DNA of 64,000 nt, taken from contig CAVOMR010000003.1 in the NCBI GenBank assembly GCA_963697085.1, positions 1,282,745 to 1,346,744 of the forward strand, given 5' to 3'. Below are positions 5,557 through 54,371 of this stretch, one piece after another (the stretch's first letter is position 1; every line of letters starts with the position of its first letter). Under the pieces are notes generated by a model. It worked only from the letters and a program-made list of their open reading frames with translations, was not told the DNA's origin and did not search any database. The stretch comes from Candidatus Dormiibacterota bacterium (GTDB taxonomy: Bacteria; Chloroflexota; Dormibacteria; Aeolococcales; Aeolococcaceae). The position numbers and the translations under genes were made by a program.

Positions 5557-6607
5557 ATGACCCGATACCGCGCCGCGCTTGCCGCCGTCGCCGTGCTCAT
5601 CGTCGCTGCCGTGCTGGTCACGGTGATCCGCATGCCACCGCCACCGGCCACCGCGTCGACCACCGGCGGCCAGGTGCTCCCGGCGAGCCAGCGGATCGAG
5701 GCGCCGGACTTCGTCGGCATCGACGGCTGGCTCAACAGCCCGCCCCTGACGCTCGCCGACCTTCGCGGCAAGGTCGTCCTCATCGATTTCTGGACGTTCT
5801 CGTGCGTCAACTGTGTGCGGACGATCCCGCACCTCCAGGCGCTCTACAACGACTACAAGGACGACGGCTTCGTCATCGTCGGCGTGCACTCGCCCGAGTT
5901 CGACTTCGAGATGGTCACTGCCAACGTCGCTGCCGCCGTCACGCGGCTCGGGGTGACCTGGCCGGTCGCCATCGACAGCCAGATGGCCACGTGGAACGCG
6001 TACCAGAACGAGTACTGGCCCGCGGAGTACCTGCTCGATCAGCAGGGCCGGGTCGCGTACACGAGCTTCGGTGAAGGCGACTACACCCAGACCGACGCCG
6101 CCGTGGCGCAGCTGCTCGGCGTCAAGCAGGCCGCGGTCCCGTCGTCGACGCCGGTGCCCTCGGACACGACCCCCGAGCTGTACGTCGGCAGCGACAGCGG
6201 GCGCGGGGAGCTCGCCGACAACGAGAGCTACGGGCCGATGGGACAGCCGGTCGACTATCCGGATCCCGGTCCACCCCAGAACGACGACCTGCCCCAGGTG
6301 ACCGGCACCTGGACCGACGAGGGCCAGTACCTGCAGGCGGACACGACCGGGCACCTGAGGCTGAGCTTCCAGGCCGAACTCGGTGTACGTCGTCGCCGGG
6401 ACGGGCGGATCCGAACTGCACGTTTCTGTCACGCTTGACGGAAAGTCGGTGGGCACGGTGAACAGCGGCCCGGCGCTGACCGGCTCGGGATTCACGGTGT
6501 CGCGCCAGGACCTCTTCCAGCTGCTCACCGGCGTCTCATCCGGTTACCACCTCATCGACCTCACCGTCCCGGCCGGCTTCCGTATCTATACCTTTACCTT
6601 CGGCTGA
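5557..6607 (+). pseudogene. Secreted thioredoxin-like thiol-disulfide oxidoreductase (DipZ soluble-domain-like), frame broken by one extra base near 6374-6383
   Basis: N-terminal TM helix, then the redoxin motif DFWTFSCVNCVRT (CxxC). The frame-1 ORF ends at 6438 in Arg-rich junk. Frame 2 (open from 6365) continues as VYVVAGTGGSELHVSVTLDGKSVG...IYTFTFG, the DipZ-type C-terminal domain. This is either a pseudogene or an assembly error. Confidence 0.7.
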
Positions 6608-7341
6608 TGATTTCGATTGCGACGGTGCTCGCGACGTTCGTCGCGGGGCTCGGGTCCTTCCTCGCACCCTGCACGGTCCCGCTGCTGCCCGCGTACCTCG
6701 CCTGCGTCTCAGGGGTGAGCGCCGCCGAGCTCACCAACCCGGACCGGCACAGCTTCCGGCTCCGCCTCCTCGCGGGGTCGCTCCTGTACGTCGCCGGGTT
6801 CACGCTCGTCTTTGTGCTGCTCGGGCTGACCGCCGGTGGGATCGCCCGCGTGGCCAACGGGGCGGTGAGCGGCCGTATCGTCGAGATCGTCGGCGGCGTG
6901 GCCGTGATCCTCTTCGGGCTCGCGATCATCGGCGTGGTCCGCATCGGGCTGCTCGAGCGCACGGCCGGGTTCCAGCTGCCCGAACGTCTCCGCCGCCGTG
7001 GCGTGCTCGGCGCCTTCCTGGTCGGTGTCGTCTTCGGCATCGGGTGGACGCCCTGCGTCGGGCCGTACCTCGCCGCGGCGCTGACGCTTGCCGCGCTCAG
7101 CGATCACGCTGTCGCCGGCGCATTCCTGCTCGTCATCTACTCGCTCGGCCTGGGGTTGCCGTTCATCGCCACCGCACTGGTGTGGGCGTCACTGCCCGAC
7201 CTCCCGCGAAAGCTCAACCGGTTCGTCCGGCCGCTGACCCTCGCCGGCGGCGTCATCACCGTCGCGCTCGGCGTCCTCCTGGCCACCGGCGCCTACTCGC
7301 ACCTCACCTCCTACCTGGCGCAGCTCTCGACGCCCAGCTGA
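6607..7341 (+). CDS. ccdA: Cytochrome c biogenesis / thiol-disulfide transporter CcdA (DsbD transmembrane-domain family)
   Basis: Polytopic membrane protein with the two conserved Cys motifs FLAPCTVPLLP and GWTPCVGPYL. Its ATG overlaps the upstream stop (TGATG). Confidence 0.85.
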   Translation: MISIATVLATFVAGLGSFLAPCTVPLLPAYLACVSGVSAAELTNPDRHSFRLRLLAGSLLYVAGFTLVFVLLGLTAGGIARVANGAVSGRIVEIVGGVAVILFGLAIIGVVRIGLLERTAGFQLPERLRRRGVLGAFLVGVVFGIGWTPCVGPYLAAALTLAALSDHAVAGAFLLVIYSLGLGLPFIATALVWASLPDLPRKLNRFVRPLTLAGGVITVALGVLLATGAYSHLTSYLAQLSTPS

Positions 7342-46330: not shown

Positions 46331-49217
46331 TCAGCTGCAGCCGCTCGTCGCTCCGCAGTTGTGGCACTTGTAGCAGGCGCCGTTGCGCACCATGAGGCTG
46401 CCGCAGTCACTGCAGGTTGGCGCGTCCTCCTGGTTGATGAATGCGCCCGCGCTGAGAGTCGATATCGGGGTGACGGCCTTGCGCACTGCTGCAGCAGGCG
46501 TCGCGACCGCGGCCGTTGACTCCACCGACGCGGTGTCGACACCGAAGTCGGCGAGGTCTGTCGCCTCGGGGGTTACGCTGCCATCGGGCTCGCGCCGGAT
46601 AATGCCGAGGCGATCCCGCTCCTCCTGCGGCAGGAAACGCGATGCCAGCCAGCGGAAGATGTAGTCCATCACCGACTTGGCAATCGGGATCTCGGGGTTG
46701 CGCGTGAAACCCTGCGGATCGAAGCGCGTGTGGGAGAACTTGTCGACGAGCGCCGGCAGCGGCACGCCGTACTGCAGCGCGAGTGAGACGGCGGTCGCGA
46801 ACGAGTCCATGAGCCCGCTGACCGTCGAGCCTTCCTTGGCCATCCGGAGGAAGATCTCGCCGGGTGTGCCGTCGTCGTAGAGGCCGACGGTGATGTAGCC
46901 CTCGTGTCCGCCGACCTCGAACTTGTGCGTCAGCGCCGTGCGCTCGACGGGAAGGCGCTTGCGCAGCGGGCGCTCCACCACTTGCGTACGGTGACCGGTG
47001 GTCTTGTCGATGCTGGTCGCGAGCGGCTGGCTGCGCTTGCTGCCGTCGCGGTAGATCGCGACCGCCTTGAGCCCGAGCTTCCAACCGTCCGTGTAGGCGC
47101 GCTCGATGTCCTCGACGGTCGCCTCGTTGGGCATGTTCACCGTCTTGGAGATTGCGCCGCTGATGAACGGCTGCACCGCCGCCATCATCCGGAGGTGTCC
47201 CTGCCACGTGATCGAGCGCTTGCCGTTCTGCGGTGTGAACGCGCAGTCGAAGACCGCGACGTCCTCCTCGCGCAGCGTCGGCGCACCCTCGATGGTGTCG
47301 TTGCTGTCGATGAACGCGATGATGTCGGCGATCGCGGTCTCGCCATACCCGAGCCGGCGGAGTGCCGCGGGGACGGTGCCGTTGACCATCTTCAGCATCC
47401 CGCCGCCGACGAGCTTCTTGTACTTGACGAGCGCGATGTCCGGCTCGACACCCGTGGTGTCGCAGTCGAGCATGAAGCTGATCGTCCCGGTCGGCGCGAG
47501 CACCGTCGCCTGTGAGTTGCGATATCCGTGGCGGGCACCGAGCTCGTGCGCCTCATCCCATGCGTGCCGCGCGGCACCGATGAGATCGGCCTCGATGTTG
47601 TCGGTCGGGATGTTGTACGCGGCCTCGCGATGCTTGCCGACAACTCGGAGCATCGGCTGGCGGTTGACCGCGTAGCCGTTGAACGCGCCGACCTCGCGCG
47701 CGATGCGCGCCGACTGCGCGTAGGCCTCGCCGGTGAGGATCGAGGTCAGGCAGGCTGCGAGGTCGCGGCCCTGGGGGGAGTCGTAGGGAACGCCGCGCGC
47801 CATGAGGAGCGCGCCGAGGTTCGCGTAGCCGAGTCCGAGAGGACGGAAGTCCTCGCTGTTCTTCGCGATCTTCTCGGTCGGGTACGACGCGTTGCTGACC
47901 AGGATCTCCTGCGCGGTGATCGTGATGTGAATCGCGTGCTTGTACAACTCGATGTCGATCGAGCCGTCGTCGTTCAGGAATCGCGTGAGGTTCAGTGACG
48001 CGAGGTTGCAGCTGGTGTCGTCGAGGAACATGTACTCGCTGCAGGGGTTGCTCGCGTTGATGCGACCCGTCGCCGCGGACGTGTGCCAGTCGTTGATGGT
48101 CGTGTCGTACTGCATGCCCGGGTCGCCGCACTGCCACGCGGACTCCGCGATGAGCTTCATGAGCGAGCGGGCCTTGACGGTCTTGAGGATGCGGTTCGAA
48201 GTCCGTCACCGCGCGCAGGTGCCAGTCACGGTCGTCCTGGACGGCGCGCATGAACTCGTCCGTCACGCGGACGGAGTTGTTGCTGTTCTGGAAGAAGACC
48301 GACGCGTACGCCTCACCGGTGAAGGAGCTGTCGTAGCCGCCCTCGATGAGCGTCCACGCCTTGCGCTCCTCGCTCACCTTGCAGGTGATGAAGTCCTCGA
48401 CGTCCGGGTGGTCGACGTTGAGGATGACCATCTTCGCGGCGCGGCGCGTGGTGCCACCGCTCTTGATGACACCCGCGAACGCGTCGAACCCCTTCATGAA
48501 GGAGACGGGTCCGCTCGCGGTGCCGCCGCCGGCCAGCGACTCGGTCGCGGAGCGGATCGGCGAGAGGTTGGTCCCGGTGCCGCTCCCGTACTTGAAGAGC
48601 ATACCCTCGGTCTTCGCGAGCGTGAGGATCGACTCCATGGTGTCCTCGACGCTGTTGATGAAGCACGCGGAGATTTGAGGCTTGCTCGTGACGACGCCGA
48701 GGTTGAACCACACCGGGCTGTTGAAGCTCATCTTCTGATGCAGCAACAGGTGGGTGAGCTCGTCCTGGAACGCCTGGGCGTCGGTCTCCGTCGCAAAGTA
48801 GCCTCCCTCTCGGCCCCACTTTGCGATGGTGTCGGCGACGCGCGAGATCATCTGCTTGACGCTGTTCTCGCGACCCGGAGTGCCGAGCTTCCCGCGGAAG
48901 TACTTGCTCACCACGACGTTTGTGGCCATCTGTGACCAGAACGTCGGGATCTCGCAGTCCTTCTGCTCGAAGACCGTCTCGCCCTTCTCGTTGCCGATGG
49001 CAGCGGTGCGCTGCTCCCACGTCACCTCGTCGAAGGGATGCACGCCTTCGCGGGTGAACCTGCGCTCGACCTGGATGCCACCGCTCTCGATCTCCACCTT
49101 GGTGCTCACGCGGGCGTGTTCCGACCCACTTCGGCGAGGTGCTCTCCGGCCGGTGGGCGGCTCCATCGAGATGTGGTGAGCGTCGTCAGGCGGGAGTTTG
49201 GAGGCGGAGCGATCCAC
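46331..49217 (-). pseudogene. nrdJ: Adenosylcobalamin-dependent (class II) ribonucleotide reductase NrdJ, frame broken by one extra base at about 48193-48203
   Basis: The N-terminal ORF reads ...WSQMATNVVVSKYFRG...SACFINSV...RDWHLRAVTD and then junk. The other frame continues NRILKTVKARSLMKLIAESAWQCGDPGMQYDTTINDWHT...NPCSEY... to the C-terminal Zn ribbon CSDCGSLMVRNGACYKCHNCG. The junction lies at GACTTCGAACC on the coding strand. Confidence 0.85.
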
Positions 49218-49320: not shown

Positions 49321-51510
49321 TCAATGATCCCACATGTTGGGCCCCAGCCGGTCGGGAGCCCCCATATCTTGCGAGTCAGTGGTCCGGGAGTCAAGGGGGT
49401 TTTGCACCTCTGTTGCACCGGTGAGGATGTCCCGGTGGAGGATCGGAACCTCGATCCGCATCGTGACGCGGCGATCCCCCGCGATCAGCAGGAACTCGCC
49501 CCGAGACGCGGTTTCGAGGAAGCCGCGCTGGGCCTCCGTCAGCCCGAACGCCTGCTCCATCCGGGCCGTTTCCGCGGCTCGATGCCCGCCCAGGAGGACC
49601 ACCGCGCAGTTCGTCGCGATCACGCTGCCCTCGTCGCTGCTGAGGAGGTCCTGCGCGTTCTGCGTGGCCACGACGAGCGACGCGCTGTACTTGCGGCAGC
49701 GTCGCGCCAGCTGCACCAGGAGCTCTCGCAGCGGACGGTGCGCGCAGAGCGCGCCGACCTCGTCGAACACGATGTGCCGGCGGCGTTGATCCCTGCGGAC
49801 CAGCTCCCACAACCAGCGGGCGACGATGAGCGTCGCCGCGGCGACGTGCTCCGGTGGCATGTCTCTGAGCGAGATCGCGCAGACGCCCGAGTCCACGGCG
49901 AGTGATGTGGGGCGGTTGAACAAGGCGCCGAGCCCGCCGGTGCAGAAGCGGCGCACGACGGTCGCGACCGGGCGTGCTTCCTCGTCGAGCGTTGGAAGGC
50001 AATCCTCGAGCAGCGGGATGCGATGTTCGCCATGCGCACGTTGGACAGCGTCGCGCGCCGCGACATCGACGACGGCACGCTCGACATCGCCGAGACGGTC
50101 GCCGCAGAGCACGGTCACGAGGCCCACGACCGCGGCGATCGTCTCCTCGGCATCGTCGTCAACACCTTCGAAGACGTTGACCGCCGCGTCGGTTCCAGGC
50201 GCCAGCTCGAGATACCGCCCGCCAAGCGCCTTCACCACGGCGCGATATTCACCCTCGGGATCGATGATCACCGAGTTCACGCCGGCGACGGCCGCCTCGA
50301 GCACGAGCGTGCCGATCGCAAAGCTCTTGCCGTGCCCCGACGCCGCGAACACCGCGATGTTCGGATTCGGGTGGCGGTCGGTGTCGAACGGCGCGACGGA
50401 GACCGGCAACCCGGAGCGGATCGCGGCGCCGAGACGGTAACCGCGATGGTCCGAGCACCCGGCCTCGATCCACGGAATGCACGTCGCGGCAGCGGCGGAG
50501 TCGACCAGCTTGCCGTCATGGAGGGCGTCGAAGCAGAGCAGCTGCGTGCTCATGAAGGCCTCCATGTGGCGGAAGTGCGTGATCTCCGCAGCTGTGAGCG
50601 CCGAGGCGAAGGCGAGTCGCAGCGCATCGCTCTGCAGGTCGAGGTCCTCCTGCGAGGAGCCGTGCGCGGTGGCGATCACCGAGAGATGCAGCGGACGACC
50701 CAGGTTGCGCGCGAGGCGGTCGCGCAAGGCCGTTGCGGAGTCGAGCCCGATATCGACGTGGACGTCGGCGAGCGCGCCGCGTTCGTATTCGAGCATCCGG
50801 TGCGCGGAGAAATCGCGCAGCCGCCGGTTCAGCCGGCCGAGCGCTTCCCCGAGTGGCGCAGGCGCCAGATGGATGGCGATATCGCAGTCGGCCCTGACGC
50901 TGAAGAGAGGCGCCAGCCATCCCGGGCCGACGGCGTGCCCCGGCAGGCGTCGCACGGCGAAGCCACGATGGGGCCGGCCGCCAACGTCCACCTGCCGCGC
51001 CTGCTCACGCCACCACACGCCGTCGTTTTCGTCATGATCGTCCGCAACAGCCTCGAGCAGGGCCATGTCCTCGAGCCGGGTGGCGCCGACGCCGAGCGCC
51101 CGGAGACGGTCCAGCGCGTGTGCGCAGGCGGCATCGAGCGCCGCGAGGGTTCGGCCGCAGAGCGCGACGTAGACCTGACGTGTGTAGCGACGGTCAGCCC
51201 ATATCTCGTCTTTCCAGTGCTGTTGCATCGCGTGGTCGAGCTCTTCATGTTGCGGCGGGAACGGGCCCGCGGGTGGGATCTGGAGGCGGCGGACGCGAAC
51301 CACGAGCTGCATCGGGCTCTCCAGCGTGTGGCAGAGCCGCGCGAATGCGGCGGCAGCGGCTGACTGGCGCGCCGGGTCGAGGGCGGTGATGTCGAGCTCA
51401 CTGGTCGCGAGCACGGCAGAGAACTGGCCCCGATGCTCGCATCGGTTGCCACGGACGACAACTGGAGCCGGTGCGGGGTTCTCCCAGGCGAGCGGCTTCA
51501 GCCGTGCCAT
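49321..51510 (-). CDS. VirB4/TraE/PrgJ-family type IV secretion-like ATPase (orphan)
   Basis: 729 aa. The N-terminal domain pattern FSAVLATSELDITALDPARQSAAAAAFARLCHTLESPMQLVVRV is typical of Gram-positive VirB4 homologues. Walker A FAASGHGKSF, Walker B HIVFDEVGAL, and RKYSASLVVATQNAQDLL...RGEFLLIAG. The start overlaps the upstream gene by 13 nt. Confidence 0.7.
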   Translation of the reverse strand: MARLKPLAWENPAPAPVVVRGNRCEHRGQFSAVLATSELDITALDPARQSAAAAAFARLCHTLESPMQLVVRVRRLQIPPAGPFPPQHEELDHAMQQHWKDEIWADRRYTRQVYVALCGRTLAALDAACAHALDRLRALGVGATRLEDMALLEAVADDHDENDGVWWREQARQVDVGGRPHRGFAVRRLPGHAVGPGWLAPLFSVRADCDIAIHLAPAPLGEALGRLNRRLRDFSAHRMLEYERGALADVHVDIGLDSATALRDRLARNLGRPLHLSVIATAHGSSQEDLDLQSDALRLAFASALTAAEITHFRHMEAFMSTQLLCFDALHDGKLVDSAAAATCIPWIEAGCSDHRGYRLGAAIRSGLPVSVAPFDTDRHPNPNIAVFAASGHGKSFAIGTLVLEAAVAGVNSVIIDPEGEYRAVVKALGGRYLELAPGTDAAVNVFEGVDDDAEETIAAVVGLVTVLCGDRLGDVERAVVDVAARDAVQRAHGEHRIPLLEDCLPTLDEEARPVATVVRRFCTGGLGALFNRPTSLAVDSGVCAISLRDMPPEHVAAATLIVARWLWELVRRDQRRRHIVFDEVGALCAHRPLRELLVQLARRCRKYSASLVVATQNAQDLLSSDEGSVIATNCAVVLLGGHRAAETARMEQAFGLTEAQRGFLETASRGEFLLIAGDRRVTMRIEVPILHRDILTGATEVQNPLDSRTTDSQDMGAPDRLGPNMWDH

Positions 51511-52688
51511 GCGACCGGCAGCTCACCGCCAATCCGTCGAGCGAGACGGCGAAGCGCCATCGCGGCGGGTCCGGAGTCGTCGAGCGCGACGAGGCGGTGC
51601 GCGTTCTCCGCCGTGACCACGGAGTTGTCGTCGGGGATGTCGCCGATCAGCTGACCACCGAGGTCGGCCATGGGTTCGGAGAGATCGGTGCCGGGACGCG
51701 AGCGATTGACGATGTAGCGCAGTTGATGACGCAGACCCAGTCGCCGCAACGCCTCGGTGCTGCGGTACGCGTCCTGGACGCCGCCCGCGGTCGGCACCAC
51801 GACGACGAAGACGTCATCGCACGCGCCGAGCGCCGCGATGTTCAGCGGCGACAGCTCCGGGGAGATGTCGACAACCACGAGGTCGAACGCGTCCATGTCG
51901 AGCTCGCGCAACACCTCCCTGAGGAGCGCAGGCGTCACCGGCCACTCCGGGTTGACCGGGCGCTGGGGGCCGAGCAGCACGCGTGTGCCGGATGCATGCG
52001 TGATCATGAAGTCGACGACGCTGCGGTCCTCAGGCGGCGCCAGCGCGAAGTCCAGCAGCGTCTTCTCGGGCGCGCCGAGACGGATGCCGACCGTGGGACT
52101 GCGCAGGTCGAGGTCGATGAGCGCAACCTTCAGCGCGGGGCGGTCGTCGCTGCTGCTGGCTGCAAGCAGGCATGCAAGCTCAGTCGCGAGGGTGCTGCGC
52201 CCCGTCCCGCCGCGCAGTGAGAAGAAGGTGACCCGTCGCGGCCCATCGCGGCGGTCCGGGTGCGCAAGGATCACCGGGGAGGTGGGGGCTCGCGGTGGCG
52301 GCGTCTGCCGAGCGCCGAAGAGCTCGATGATCGGAGCCTGCACCGGCTCGTCTGCGGGGGACGGCTGCGTCGGGTTGGGCGGAGACGGCGTGTCGGAAGT
52401 TGCGAGGTTGCAGCGCAAGGACCCGTGCCGCGCTCGAACCGAATACAGGCCCGCGAACACCGCCCAGTCCAGCGCGGGTCGCCCTGCGACGCTGATCCAC
52501 CCAAGTGCGGCGGCGATCGCGCCGACGACAACGGCCATCGGATCCGCGATCGCCGGAGAGAGCGGCGAACGGAGCAGCGCGTATGCGGCGAGCGCCCCGA
52601 CCATGACCACCACGAGCTGGCCGGCTCCGAGACCGAACGCGATCTGGTCGGGCCGGTCGAAGCCGTCGGCGAACTCGATCTGATCCAT
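51498..52688 (-). CDS. Fusion protein: PrgI/VirB3-like two-TM module + Pro-rich linker + ParA/MinD/CpaE-like P-loop domain
   Basis: ATG at 52688 after GGAG. The N-terminus MDQIEFADGFDRPDQIAFGLGAGQLVVVMVGALAAYALL...VVGAIAAALGWISVAGRPALDW resembles PrgI-family proteins. The linker is TSDTPSPPNPTQPSPADEP. The C-terminal region RVTFFSLRGGTGRSTLATELACLLA...LIDLDL...DLVVVD is ParA/MinD-like. The rest of the 938-aa ORF is antisense to the aldehyde dehydrogenase and is rejected. Confidence 0.65.
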   Translation of the reverse strand: MDQIEFADGFDRPDQIAFGLGAGQLVVVMVGALAAYALLRSPLSPAIADPMAVVVGAIAAALGWISVAGRPALDWAVFAGLYSVRARHGSLRCNLATSDTPSPPNPTQPSPADEPVQAPIIELFGARQTPPPRAPTSPVILAHPDRRDGPRRVTFFSLRGGTGRSTLATELACLLAASSSDDRPALKVALIDLDLRSPTVGIRLGAPEKTLLDFALAPPEDRSVVDFMITHASGTRVLLGPQRPVNPEWPVTPALLREVLRELDMDAFDLVVVDISPELSPLNIAALGACDDVFVVVVPTAGGVQDAYRSTEALRRLGLRHQLRYIVNRSRPGTDLSEPMADLGGQLIGDIPDDNSVVTAENAHRLVALDDSGPAAMALRRLARRIGGELPVAWHG

Positions 52689-52844
52689 CCGCCACTCCAC
52701 TGTTTGCGTTCGCAGAATGACAGCATCGTAGGAGTGTCCGGCTCCTCGTGAGCGGACAAACGGCCGGCCCCGCGGGGCGCCCCGCCGATCGCCGTCCATA
52801 ATCGACACCGGCGTCAACAACCGGTGCAGCGGTGGAGGTACCCA

Positions 52845-54371
52845 GTGGCAGCGATCGTCGAGCCCGACGTGGCGACGTACCAGCAGTACATCGATGGCGA
52901 ATGGACCGGGGCGGAAGACGGTCACAGCTACGAGGTCATCAATCCATCCACCGAAGAGGTGATGGCCACCGCGCCGGCGAGCACCAGGGCCGACGCCAAG
53001 CGAGCCGTCGAGGCCGCACGCCGCTCCTTCGAGGCAGGTGAGTGGCGGCTCAAGTCGCAGTTGCAGCGCTCCCAGATCATGTTCGAGATCGTTGAGCATC
53101 TTCGTGAGGTATCGGACGGCTGGGGGCTGCTCGAGGCGCAGAACGCGGGCGCCGTGCTCCGCAAGACCGAGGTCGTCGACGTGCCGCTCGCCATCGAGTG
53201 GTTCCGCAGCCTGGCCGAGCAGGCGCTCGGGATCCCCTGGTACGAGCCGCTGCCGTGGATCGATTCGCCGTACGTGTCCTGGAACTTCATGCAGCGCGAA
53301 CCCATCGGCGTGTGCGCGGGGATCATCCCGTGGAACTACCCCCTCATCTTCGCCATGTGGAAGATCGCGCCGGCGTTGGCGATGGGCAACTCGGTCGTGC
53401 TCAAGCCTGCCCCGCAGACGCCGCTGAGCGCCCTCGCGGTGGCTCGCGCCATCGACGAGACGGGCCTGCTCCCCAAGGGCGTCCTCAACGTGATCACCGG
53501 CGACAGCGCCGACGCGGGCATCGAGCTCGTCGAGAACCCGGACGTCGACAAGGTCGCGTTCACGGGCTCGACTGCCACGGGACGCCGGGTTCTCGCCGCC
53601 GCGGCCCCCACGATCAAGAAGGTCACCCTCGAGCTCGGCGGCAAGTCGGCGAACATCGTCTGCGCGGACGCCGACCTCGACATCGCCGTCGACGGCGCGC
53701 TCTTCGGCACCTTCTTCCACCAGGGGCAGATGTGCGAATCGGGCACGCGCATCTTCGTCCACGACGACATCTACGACACGTTCGTCGACCGCCTGGTCGA
53801 CGGCGCGGCTGCGCTTCGCGTCGGTGACGCCTCGGATTTCGAGAGCCAGGTCGGCCCGGTGATCAACAGGTCGCAGTACGACATGATCCTGTCGGCAATC
53901 GAGCGCGCGAAGGCGGAGGGCGCGACCGTCGCGTGCGGCGGCGGGCGCGCCACCAGTGCCGGCGATCGCGGATTCTTCGTGCAACCGACGGTGCTCACCG
54001 AGGTCTCCCCGGACTCGCACGCGGGCACCGAGGAGATCTTCGGGCCGGTGCTCGCGGTGCAGCGCTGGAGCGAGATCGGCGAGGTCATCAGTCGCGCCAA
54101 CCGGACGATCTACGGCCTCGCCGGCGGCGTGTGGTCGCGCGACACACGCGGGGCGATCGAGATCGCCAAGCAGCTTCGCACCGGGACCGTCTGGATCAAC
54201 GACTGGCACCTGCTGAATCCGCTGGCGCCCTTTGGCGGCTACAAGCAGAGCGGCATCGGTCGCGAGCACGGGCGCGAGGGGCTGCTCGAATACACGCAGG
54301 TCAAGCACATCCACGTCGACCAGGGCGTGCCCCGGGGCGAGCGCTACTTCTGGGACGTGCTGCTGGGCTGA
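52845..54371 (+). CDS. NAD(P)-dependent aldehyde dehydrogenase
   Basis: VTLELGGKSANIV, catalytic Cys block FFHQGQMCESGTRIF, and EEIFGPV. The GTG at 52845 follows GGTGGAGG. An alternative ATG is at 52824. Confidence 0.9.
   Translation: MAAIVEPDVATYQQYIDGEWTGAEDGHSYEVINPSTEEVMATAPASTRADAKRAVEAARRSFEAGEWRLKSQLQRSQIMFEIVEHLREVSDGWGLLEAQNAGAVLRKTEVVDVPLAIEWFRSLAEQALGIPWYEPLPWIDSPYVSWNFMQREPIGVCAGIIPWNYPLIFAMWKIAPALAMGNSVVLKPAPQTPLSALAVARAIDETGLLPKGVLNVITGDSADAGIELVENPDVDKVAFTGSTATGRRVLAAAAPTIKKVTLELGGKSANIVCADADLDIAVDGALFGTFFHQGQMCESGTRIFVHDDIYDTFVDRLVDGAAALRVGDASDFESQVGPVINRSQYDMILSAIERAKAEGATVACGGGRATSAGDRGFFVQPTVLTEVSPDSHAGTEEIFGPVLAVQRWSEIGEVISRANRTIYGLAGGVWSRDTRGAIEIAKQLRTGTVWINDWHLLNPLAPFGGYKQSGIGREHGREGLLEYTQVKHIHVDQGVPRGERYFWDVLLG

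Follow-up and report, generated by a model that had tools for sequence, protein, structure and literature searches.

The window analysed here is a 64,000-nucleotide stretch of contig CAVOMR010000003.1 (positions 1,282,745 to 1,346,744) from the genome of a Candidatus Dormiibacterota bacterium (assembly GCA_963697085.1; 3 contigs, 3.27 Mb). On its minus strand, from 52688 to 51498, it encodes a 396-aa protein with the N-terminus MDQIEF. Translation, Pfam and NCBIfam matches, homologue clusters and an AlphaFold2 (AF2) model divided this protein into three parts: a VirB3/PrgI-like transmembrane hairpin (residues 1-87; 52428..52688), a Pro-rich linker (residues 88-150; 52238..52427) and a CpaE/MinD-type ParA domain (residues 151-396; 51501..52237). 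A Shine-Dalgarno-like GGAG lies 9 nt ahead of the ATG at 52688. The open reading frame (ORF) listed for this place had 938 aa; its part upstream of the fusion ORF runs antisense to the gene for an aldehyde dehydrogenase (52824-54371). Directly downstream lies the gene for a VirB4-family ATPase (729 aa; 49321..51510, minus strand). The gene that fuses a VirB3/PrgI-like module to a ParA domain is real, and it is strongly conserved in Dormibacteria, a class of uncultured soil bacteria.

A word-indexed search of 5.8 billion proteins returned >120 clusters of fusion homologues, with 64-86% identity at 98-100% coverage, drawn from four sources (NCBI, JGI, ENA and Logan). All homologues had the MDQIEF-type start motif, and the names they now carry do not go beyond “MinD-like ATPase”, “AAA family ATPase” or “P-loop NTPase”. 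A profile of the N-terminal module, searched against representatives clustered at 50% identity, had ~75 full fusions among its best 150 matches. Short-read contigs from four independent soil/sediment metagenome runs gave gap-free matches to the linker region (52215-52431 and 52093-52343) and to the junction of the fusion and VirB4-like genes (51396-51621). This check of the frame matters because the ribonucleotide reductase gene NrdJ, 3 kb away, is frameshifted in the same assembly. A wide spread outside Dormibacteria was considered and set aside: named cluster members were Candidatus Dormibacterota/Dormibacteria, bar two odd-looking labels of metagenome-assembled genomes, and one further match in our phylum sample (G185) was a classical REC-CpaE.

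The N-terminal module was delimited by hydrophobicity, alignment invariants, PrgI matches, model confidence (predicted local distance difference test, pLDDT, 79-98) and the ratio of nonsynonymous to synonymous substitution rates (dN/dS). It has an acidic N-terminus, a GL motif (G19, L20), two transmembrane helices, W64, R70, W75 and an Arg-rich helix. The hydrophobic segments span about residues 15-44 and 43-70 (a first-pass annotation made from the letters alone had read a two-helix layout within residues 1 to about 90), and AF2 placed helices at 22-40 and 45-64 with pLDDT >90. G19, L20, R70 and W75 were invariant across diverse modules. The PrgI family (PF12666) matched the whole window protein at 1.4e-4. 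It also matched 15/15 diverse modules, taken from genomes down to 24% identity, with a best value of 7.5e-8, and was the sole family common to all of them. The module profile, run against 1.84 billion representative proteins, found 922 at E ≤ 0.001, with fusions ranked first and short stand-alone PrgI-like proteins next. The PrgI-like assignment proposed in the first pass is supported by these matches and by the orthology of the module to stand-alone ORFs upstream of a VirB4-like gene in related genomes (see below). The hairpin is expected to have an N-in/C-in topology with both ends in the cytoplasm, because Arg residues follow the second transmembrane helix and the ATP-binding domain must be inside.

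The linker was recognized by its low pLDDT (47-61), its length variation and its dN/dS of 0.28-0.71. Among homologues its length differs by tens to >100 residues, and the frame is always kept. The AF2 model, for which 57 diverse sequences were aligned, had a mean pLDDT of 85, with both domains >90 and residues 88-150 at ~50; an earlier model from 26 close homologues was poor (pLDDT 56), and the diverse alignment was used instead. The motifs quoted in the first pass were all present: the two hydrophobic helices, the linker TSDTPSPPNPTQPSPADEP, and FFSLRGGTGRSTLATELA, LIDLDL and DLVVVDISP.

For the C-terminal domain, Pfam, NCBIfam, PDB profile and Foldseek matches agreed on a ParA/MinD-type fold, as first proposed, and dN/dS was also used to characterize it. 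Pfam gave ParA (9e-9), AAA_31 (2e-8) and CbiA (6e-8). NCBIfam gave MinD (8e-15), BcsQ, a KGGVGR variant (2e-10) and CpaE_hom_Actino (4e-10), all far below their equivalog cut-offs (for MinD 52-55 bits vs cut-offs of 202-213). The profile search against PDB matched MinD (1hyq, 3e-9), FlhG, FleN and Soj, and Foldseek placed the model with MinD, FleN and FlhG at a target template-modelling (TM) score of ~0.8. The best match outside the family was a classical REC-plus-ParA CpaE from another Chloroflexota genome (L027, FSPKGGVGRTT), with 33% identity. By alignment, the Walker A motif (residues 159-166; 52191..52214, minus strand) is a variant, RGGTGRST, in which both lysines of KGGxGK[ST] are Arg, and this motif was invariant in 26 close homologues. 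Family-wide, the signature-lysine position holds K/R/N/S/A/Q and the P-loop lysine position K/R, and G160, G161, G163, D192 and D274 (Walker B) are invariant. We rejected a true MinD, given Arg at both Walker A lysines and NCBIfam MinD scores far under the cut-off. No MinC/MinE partners adjoin the fusion gene, whose neighbours are the VirB4-like and aldehyde dehydrogenase genes.

The downstream gene was assigned to the VirB4 family by NCBIfam, PDB profile and motifs. NCBIfam matches were conju_CD1110 (3.8e-48 over residues 170-685, below the equivalog cut-off), TraC and VirB4_CagE; PDB matches were 4ag5, the VirB4 C-terminal domain (7e-22), and TrwK (5e-11). The Walker A (AASGHGKS) and Walker B (IVFDE) motifs are intact, and the protein has no transmembrane segment or hydrophobic N-terminal stretch. 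Its ATG lies 10 nt ahead of the TGA of the fusion gene, in a 13-nt start/stop overlap (ATGGCACGGCTGA), and the two genes appear to be translationally coupled.

We compared the locus with 201 genomes of the phylum-level group, 22 of them of the same class, using our own ORF picks as gene calls. Fusion homologues were found in 13 of the 22 class genomes, each with a VirB4 orthologue; in three of these the two genes were on different contigs. Six others had a stand-alone module and a VirB4 orthologue, and three had neither. The VirB4 orthologue was thus present in 19 of the 22 genomes, always with the fusion or the module (19/19), and both were jointly absent from the remaining three (3/3). The fusion adjoins the VirB4-like gene in the window and in L001-L003, L017, L018, L021 and L024. 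The two are 5-6 kb apart in L015 and L016, of the window's family (f1), and in L020, L023 and L026, of family f2. In family f4 they are on different contigs. Family f3 is without the fusion: in 6/6 sampled genomes the orthologous VirB4-like gene comes directly after an ORF of 102-178 aa that carries the module, and the genes downstream (melibiase, Hydrolase_4, D-Tyr deacylase) are common to f2.

The gap in L020 is filled by CpaF/T2SSE (2e-44), two T2SSF genes (TadB, TadC), a TadE-like and a TadE/G-like gene, a PKD protein and RcpC/CpaB, followed by the VirB4-like gene. The same seven-gene Tad set lies between fusion and VirB4 in the other four such loci, so the operon order in these related genera is fusion, CpaF, TadB, TadC, TadE-like, TadE/G-like, PKD protein, CpaB, VirB4-like. 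In the f4 genome G110 the operon is split: fusion, CpaF, TadB and TadC are on one contig (L022), and the TadE-like genes, CpaB and VirB4 on another (L035). Because Tad-pilus genes lie between fusion and VirB4 in related genera, the ParA domain is in the position of CpaE/TadZ. The fusion takes this first-gene place in L015, L016, L020, L022, L023 and L026; in the window VirB4 follows directly. Downstream of VirB4 in the Tad-bearing loci we found housekeeping genes, and no relaxase or coupling protein. The first-pass annotation had suggested that the fusion tethers a Tad-like (CpaE/TadZ-type) module to a VirB4 partner. The operon context of the relatives agrees with this; the Tad genes are absent from the locus of this genome, so nothing Tad-like is tethered locally here.

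An orthologue of the cassette CpaF was not found in this genome; the best match, 42% identical, is in other Tad loci on contig C2. These loci (C2:504000-539000, outside the window) contain two CpaF paralogues, 42% identical to the cassette CpaF, and TadB/TadC-like genes. Three clustered ParA-like genes at 535-539 kb on C2 are the closest paralogues of the ParA domain of the fusion. In L018, of a genus without the Tad cassette, the fusion is closely preceded by an ORF for a Flp-type pilin (...GGQGMTEYALILVLIAVLVILVLTVLGK...), at ~6440-6700. Such an ORF upstream of the fusion was not found in the other loci, and the pilin of the full operon was not located.

Shorter relatives were also recognized. 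A 316-aa PrgI-plus-CbiA protein (L039:4135-5085) and one of 293 aa whose P-loop is degenerate (GSGSTT; L038:2727-3608) are each encoded directly upstream of a VirB4-like gene, and appear to represent steps by which the ParA domain was reduced. The more distant short fusions P0232 and P0236 are also directly upstream of VirB4-like genes. In a single f2 genome, the VirB4-like gene is closely followed by one for a protein of 1018 aa that carries DUF11 repeats and, at its C-terminus, a sortase domain (L030:2835-5891). In L003 (11338-21299), a stretch of ≥9 kb that holds small ORFs, a LexA-like repressor and rve transposases comes after a broken VirB4-like gene; the fusion upstream is intact.

Trees of the fusion, of the VirB4-like gene and of their concatenate recovered families f1-f4, which indicates that both genes were vertically inherited. 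Within the family of the window, the earliest branch is genus g2, of the adjacent type; next, g3 and g7, which bear the Tad cassette, are sister to a clade of adjacent-type genera that holds the window (support 96/98). Forcing all adjacent-type rows into one clade cost 7 log-likelihood units (approximately unbiased (AU) test, p = 0.038). Judging from the tree order and this test, the Tad cassette was probably lost twice in f1, although this is weakly supported. Between the window and L001-L003, a Tad-less genus, dN/dS was 0.09-0.24 for the hairpin, 0.12-0.17 for the ParA domain and 0.28-0.71 for the linker. The low values for hairpin and ParA domain indicate purifying selection on both and show that the pair is maintained and not decaying.

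The flanks of the pair are housekeeping genes, and no relaxase, integrase or coupling protein was found nearby, in the window or in the loci of the relatives. On one side, a divergent intergenic region of 135 bp (52689..52823) separates the fusion from the aldehyde dehydrogenase gene (52824..54371, plus strand; Pfam Aldedh 5e-162), which is the same neighbour in L001-L003, L018 and L024. Judged from its sequence, this region presumably holds the promoter of the fusion; a sigma-70 consensus was not found in it, and a promoter/terminator scan gave nothing useful. A look-up of RNA runs listed none for the fusion gene. On the other side lies a class II ribonucleotide reductase NrdJ, recognized by Pfam and NCBIfam (46331..49217, minus strand), which is split, with overlap, between the frames 49217..47553 and 48160..46331; L001 and L002 have it intact, with 956-962 aa. 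A short-read contig matches 48090-48242 exactly, save for one base fewer at 48199, and the split is therefore probably a long-read assembly error and not a pseudogene.

Further potential parts of a type IV secretion system (T4SS) were found outside the window. A TrbL_4/VirB6-like gene (C3:836869-838078, L040:6870-8079; 313 aa, 1e-10) follows a conserved ORF of 86 aa that has two hydrophobic helices, and the flanking genes encode TypA/BipA and a CDP-alcohol phosphatidyltransferase. Orthologues of the VirB6-like gene are near the VirB4 locus in L038 and L026. From its size, shape and position, the 86-aa ORF is possibly a VirB2-like pilin. A T4SS-like cluster that mixes in Tad-type parts lies at C3:1674000-1693999 (L013). 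It encodes a TrbL/VirB6-like protein (weak match), a 451-aa AAA_10/TraG-type (VirB4/AAA_10) ATPase, an M23 peptidase, a SAF protein, a 496-aa T2SSE ATPase and a VirD4 coupling protein (PF02534, 1e-49). This cluster is probably an integrative conjugative element, separate from the fusion/VirB4 pair.

The reading we favour, and regard as reasonably probable, is that the fusion is a membrane-anchored adaptor whose hairpin partners the VirB4-like ATPase and whose ParA domain is an organiser in the CpaE/TadZ position of a Tad operon; fusion and VirB4-like gene would be the core that was kept after the loss of the Tad genes. The hairpin would be the small cognate partner of the soluble VirB4-family ATPase whose gene comes next, and would hold this motor at the membrane, as VirB3 does in T4SS, an analogy drawn from work on such systems (PMC12102498). 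The flexible linker would join it to a MinD/ParA domain that serves as the organiser in a Tad (type IVc pilus) operon specific to Dormibacteria. Where this operon is complete, one polypeptide would then bridge the Tad pilus motor and the VirB4 motor. In the lineage of the window, the seven Tad genes would have been deleted, and the fusion and VirB4-like genes, now adjacent, would have been kept by purifying selection. If so, the function of the pair would be independent of a cis-encoded Tad cassette. With RGGTGRST instead of KGGxGK[ST], the ParA domain would probably bind ATP, dimerise and serve as a scaffold that hydrolyses slowly, and not cycle fast like an ATPase of MinD type. We infer that such a scaffold would act on the Tad motor in full-operon genera, and here on VirB4 itself or on Tad machines encoded elsewhere.

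Four other explanations were weighed against this adaptor. An assembly artefact, in which a frame error joins two separate genes, was a possibility raised in the first pass, and the frameshifted NrdJ 3 kb off in the same assembly would be in keeping with it. Full-length fusions in >120 clusters from four sources and in ~75 representative clusters at 50% identity, with the linker spanned gap-free by short-read contigs, rule out a mis-joined frame, so we rejected the artefact and give it next to no credence. As VirB3 and VirB4 are hallmark conjugation genes and the genome encodes a VirD4-like protein (PF02534, 1e-49) in the C3:1674-1694 kb cluster, the pair might also be part of a mobile conjugative element, used for DNA transfer with a VirD4-type coupling protein encoded elsewhere. 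This cluster, however, lies 345 kb off, has its own VirB4/AAA_10-type ATPase and holds the sole VirD4. The housekeeping flanks of the pair are conserved and free of relaxase, integrase and coupling protein, and the gene trees follow the taxonomy of the four families. Given these flanks and trees, we rejected membership in such an element as very improbable.

The pair could instead be a decaying remnant, with fusion and VirB4-like genes left functionless by the Tad deletion and on their way to pseudogenes. The missing Tad genes of the window locus would fit, as would the broken VirB4-like frames of L001 and L002, the truncated one of L003, the shortened or degenerate ParA domains elsewhere (293 aa in L038, GSGSTT) and the lack of a ParA domain in f3. 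Both genes are nevertheless intact in the window, >120 clusters are full-length with invariant P-loop and hairpin motifs, and dN/dS is 0.09-0.24 in the Tad-less genus. The breaks in L001 and L002, moreover, are in long-read assemblies, the kind that here also broke NrdJ against a short-read contig. We therefore consider decay quite improbable. Finally, the protein may be a generic membrane-anchored MinD/CpaE, its likeness to PrgI due to chance, which serves Tad loci elsewhere and not VirB4. Points in its favour are the PrgI score of the window protein, which is under the gathering score, the other Tad loci of the genome with the closest ParA paralogues beside them at C2:535-539 kb, and the fusion standing alone in L019 and L025. 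PrgI is, on the other hand, the sole family matched by 15/15 diverse modules, the module by itself is directly upstream of the orthologous VirB4 in 6/6 f3 genomes, and co-occurrence with the VirB4 orthologue is perfect across the 22 genomes. The distant short fusions P0232 and P0236, too, are directly upstream of VirB4-like genes. We consider an anchor without VirB4 partnership unlikely.

Several observations weigh against the adaptor. The isolated module of the window scored 26.6 bits (E = 9e-6) against PF12666, whose gathering score is 27, and the N-terminal profile matched no PDB sequence, even at E = 10. A TadZ structure was absent from the Foldseek top 50, and the ParA domain is nearest to MinD/FleN/FlhG by fold and sequence, so its CpaE label is contextual. 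Of the CpaE/TadZ-type label given in the first pass, the operon position and the KGGxGR-type P-loop stand; the fold and sequence proved generically MinD/FlhG/FleN-like. In the f4 loci L019 and L025, neither Tad nor VirB4 genes adjoin the fusion. The VirB4-like gene of L003 ends at residue 368, ahead of an apparent inserted element, and the partnership of fusion and VirB4 may thus be dispensable in some lineages. The direction of change, loss vs insertion, rests on parsimony, on a node with 85/91 support and on the AU p = 0.038, for which the group was named after seeing the tree.

A larger picture, which we offer as possible rather than probable, is that of a chromosomal, vertically inherited nanomachine of Dormibacteria, free of relaxase and coupling protein, in which the VirB3-CpaE polypeptide would dock a VirB4 hexamer on a Tad platform, and whose VirB3-CpaE/VirB4 core would be workable without Tad genes of its own. 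If true, the superfamilies of type IV filaments and type IV secretion would here be hard-wired into one chimera. With the dispersed VirB6-like and VirB2-like genes, it might serve the exchange or uptake of DNA or protein. To our knowledge, VirB4 is the only motor universal to type IV secretion, with VirB3 as its partner in the membrane. Tad pili stem from a different machine superfamily. A class-wide covalent link between VirB3 and a Tad organiser is a testable candidate for two machines sharing one membrane platform. The loci form a natural deletion series, from the full operon over the split operon, the two-gene core and the degenerate ParA domain to the stand-alone VirB3-like gene, which shows how the parts depend on each other. 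The genome of the window has the cleanest two-gene core, and this suggests a role of the ParA domain tied to VirB4 itself and not to the pilus alone.

In the literature searched, including that on T4SS or pili of Dormibacterota, we found no description of a VirB3-ParA fusion or of a Tad operon bracketed by VirB3 and VirB4, in line with the first-pass view that the architecture is undescribed. The N-terminal module resembles VirB3, PrgI of pCF10 and TrwM of R388, the small inner-membrane subunits of T4SS, in being a two-transmembrane module of ~90 aa with a GL...Q/L motif, encoded directly upstream of a VirB4 ATPase and matched by PF12666 in 15/15 members. It differs in being joined by a long disordered linker to a ParA/MinD fold, neither free nor fused to VirB4, and in belonging to a chromosomal, vertically inherited system whose locus has no relaxase or coupling protein. 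TadZ/CpaE, the ParA-like organiser that comes first in Tad/Flp/type IVc pilus operons, shares with the fusion its position ahead of CpaF, TadB and TadC in the relatives, the ParA/MinD fold and a P-loop made atypical by Arg at the GK position, as in the NCBIfam KGGVGR variant. Unlike in TadZ/CpaE, the receiver-like N-terminal domain is replaced by a VirB3-like hairpin, and no Tad genes follow here. MinD, FlhG and FleN are the best sequence and fold matches of the ParA domain (1hyq, 3e-9; TM ~0.8), but the fusion has Arg at both Walker A lysines, no MinC/MinE or flagellar context, and a membrane attachment through its N-terminal transmembrane hairpin.

VirC1 of Agrobacterium is a soluble, separate ParA/MinD-like protein that recruits substrate to the T4SS, with a role at the DNA/relaxosome. 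Like the fusion, it is a ParA-family protein working with a VirB4-containing machine; here, in contrast, ParA domain and VirB3 form one covalent chain, and relaxosome genes are absent. Among published systems, the one that comes nearest is the chromosomal, relaxase-less T4SS of Patescibacteria (Microb Genom 2025, PMC12102498), a group placed as sister to Chloroflexota/Dormibacterota in that paper. The likeness lies in vertically inherited chromosomal genes for VirB4 and for PrgI/VirB3, VirB6 and VirB2-like proteins without relaxases, and extends to the TrbL_4/VirB6-like gene and 86-aa two-helix ORF of our genome (C3:836.9-838.1 kb). The paper reports neither a VirB3-ParA fusion nor a Tad cassette in the operon (PMC12102498). 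Already known are VirB3-VirB4 fusions (PMC12102498), separate ParA-like proteins cooperating with T4SS, and TadZ/CpaE whose N-terminus is receiver-like. To these the window adds the reduced two-gene state and its upkeep under selection, together with strict co-occurrence and the stand-alone and degenerate forms.

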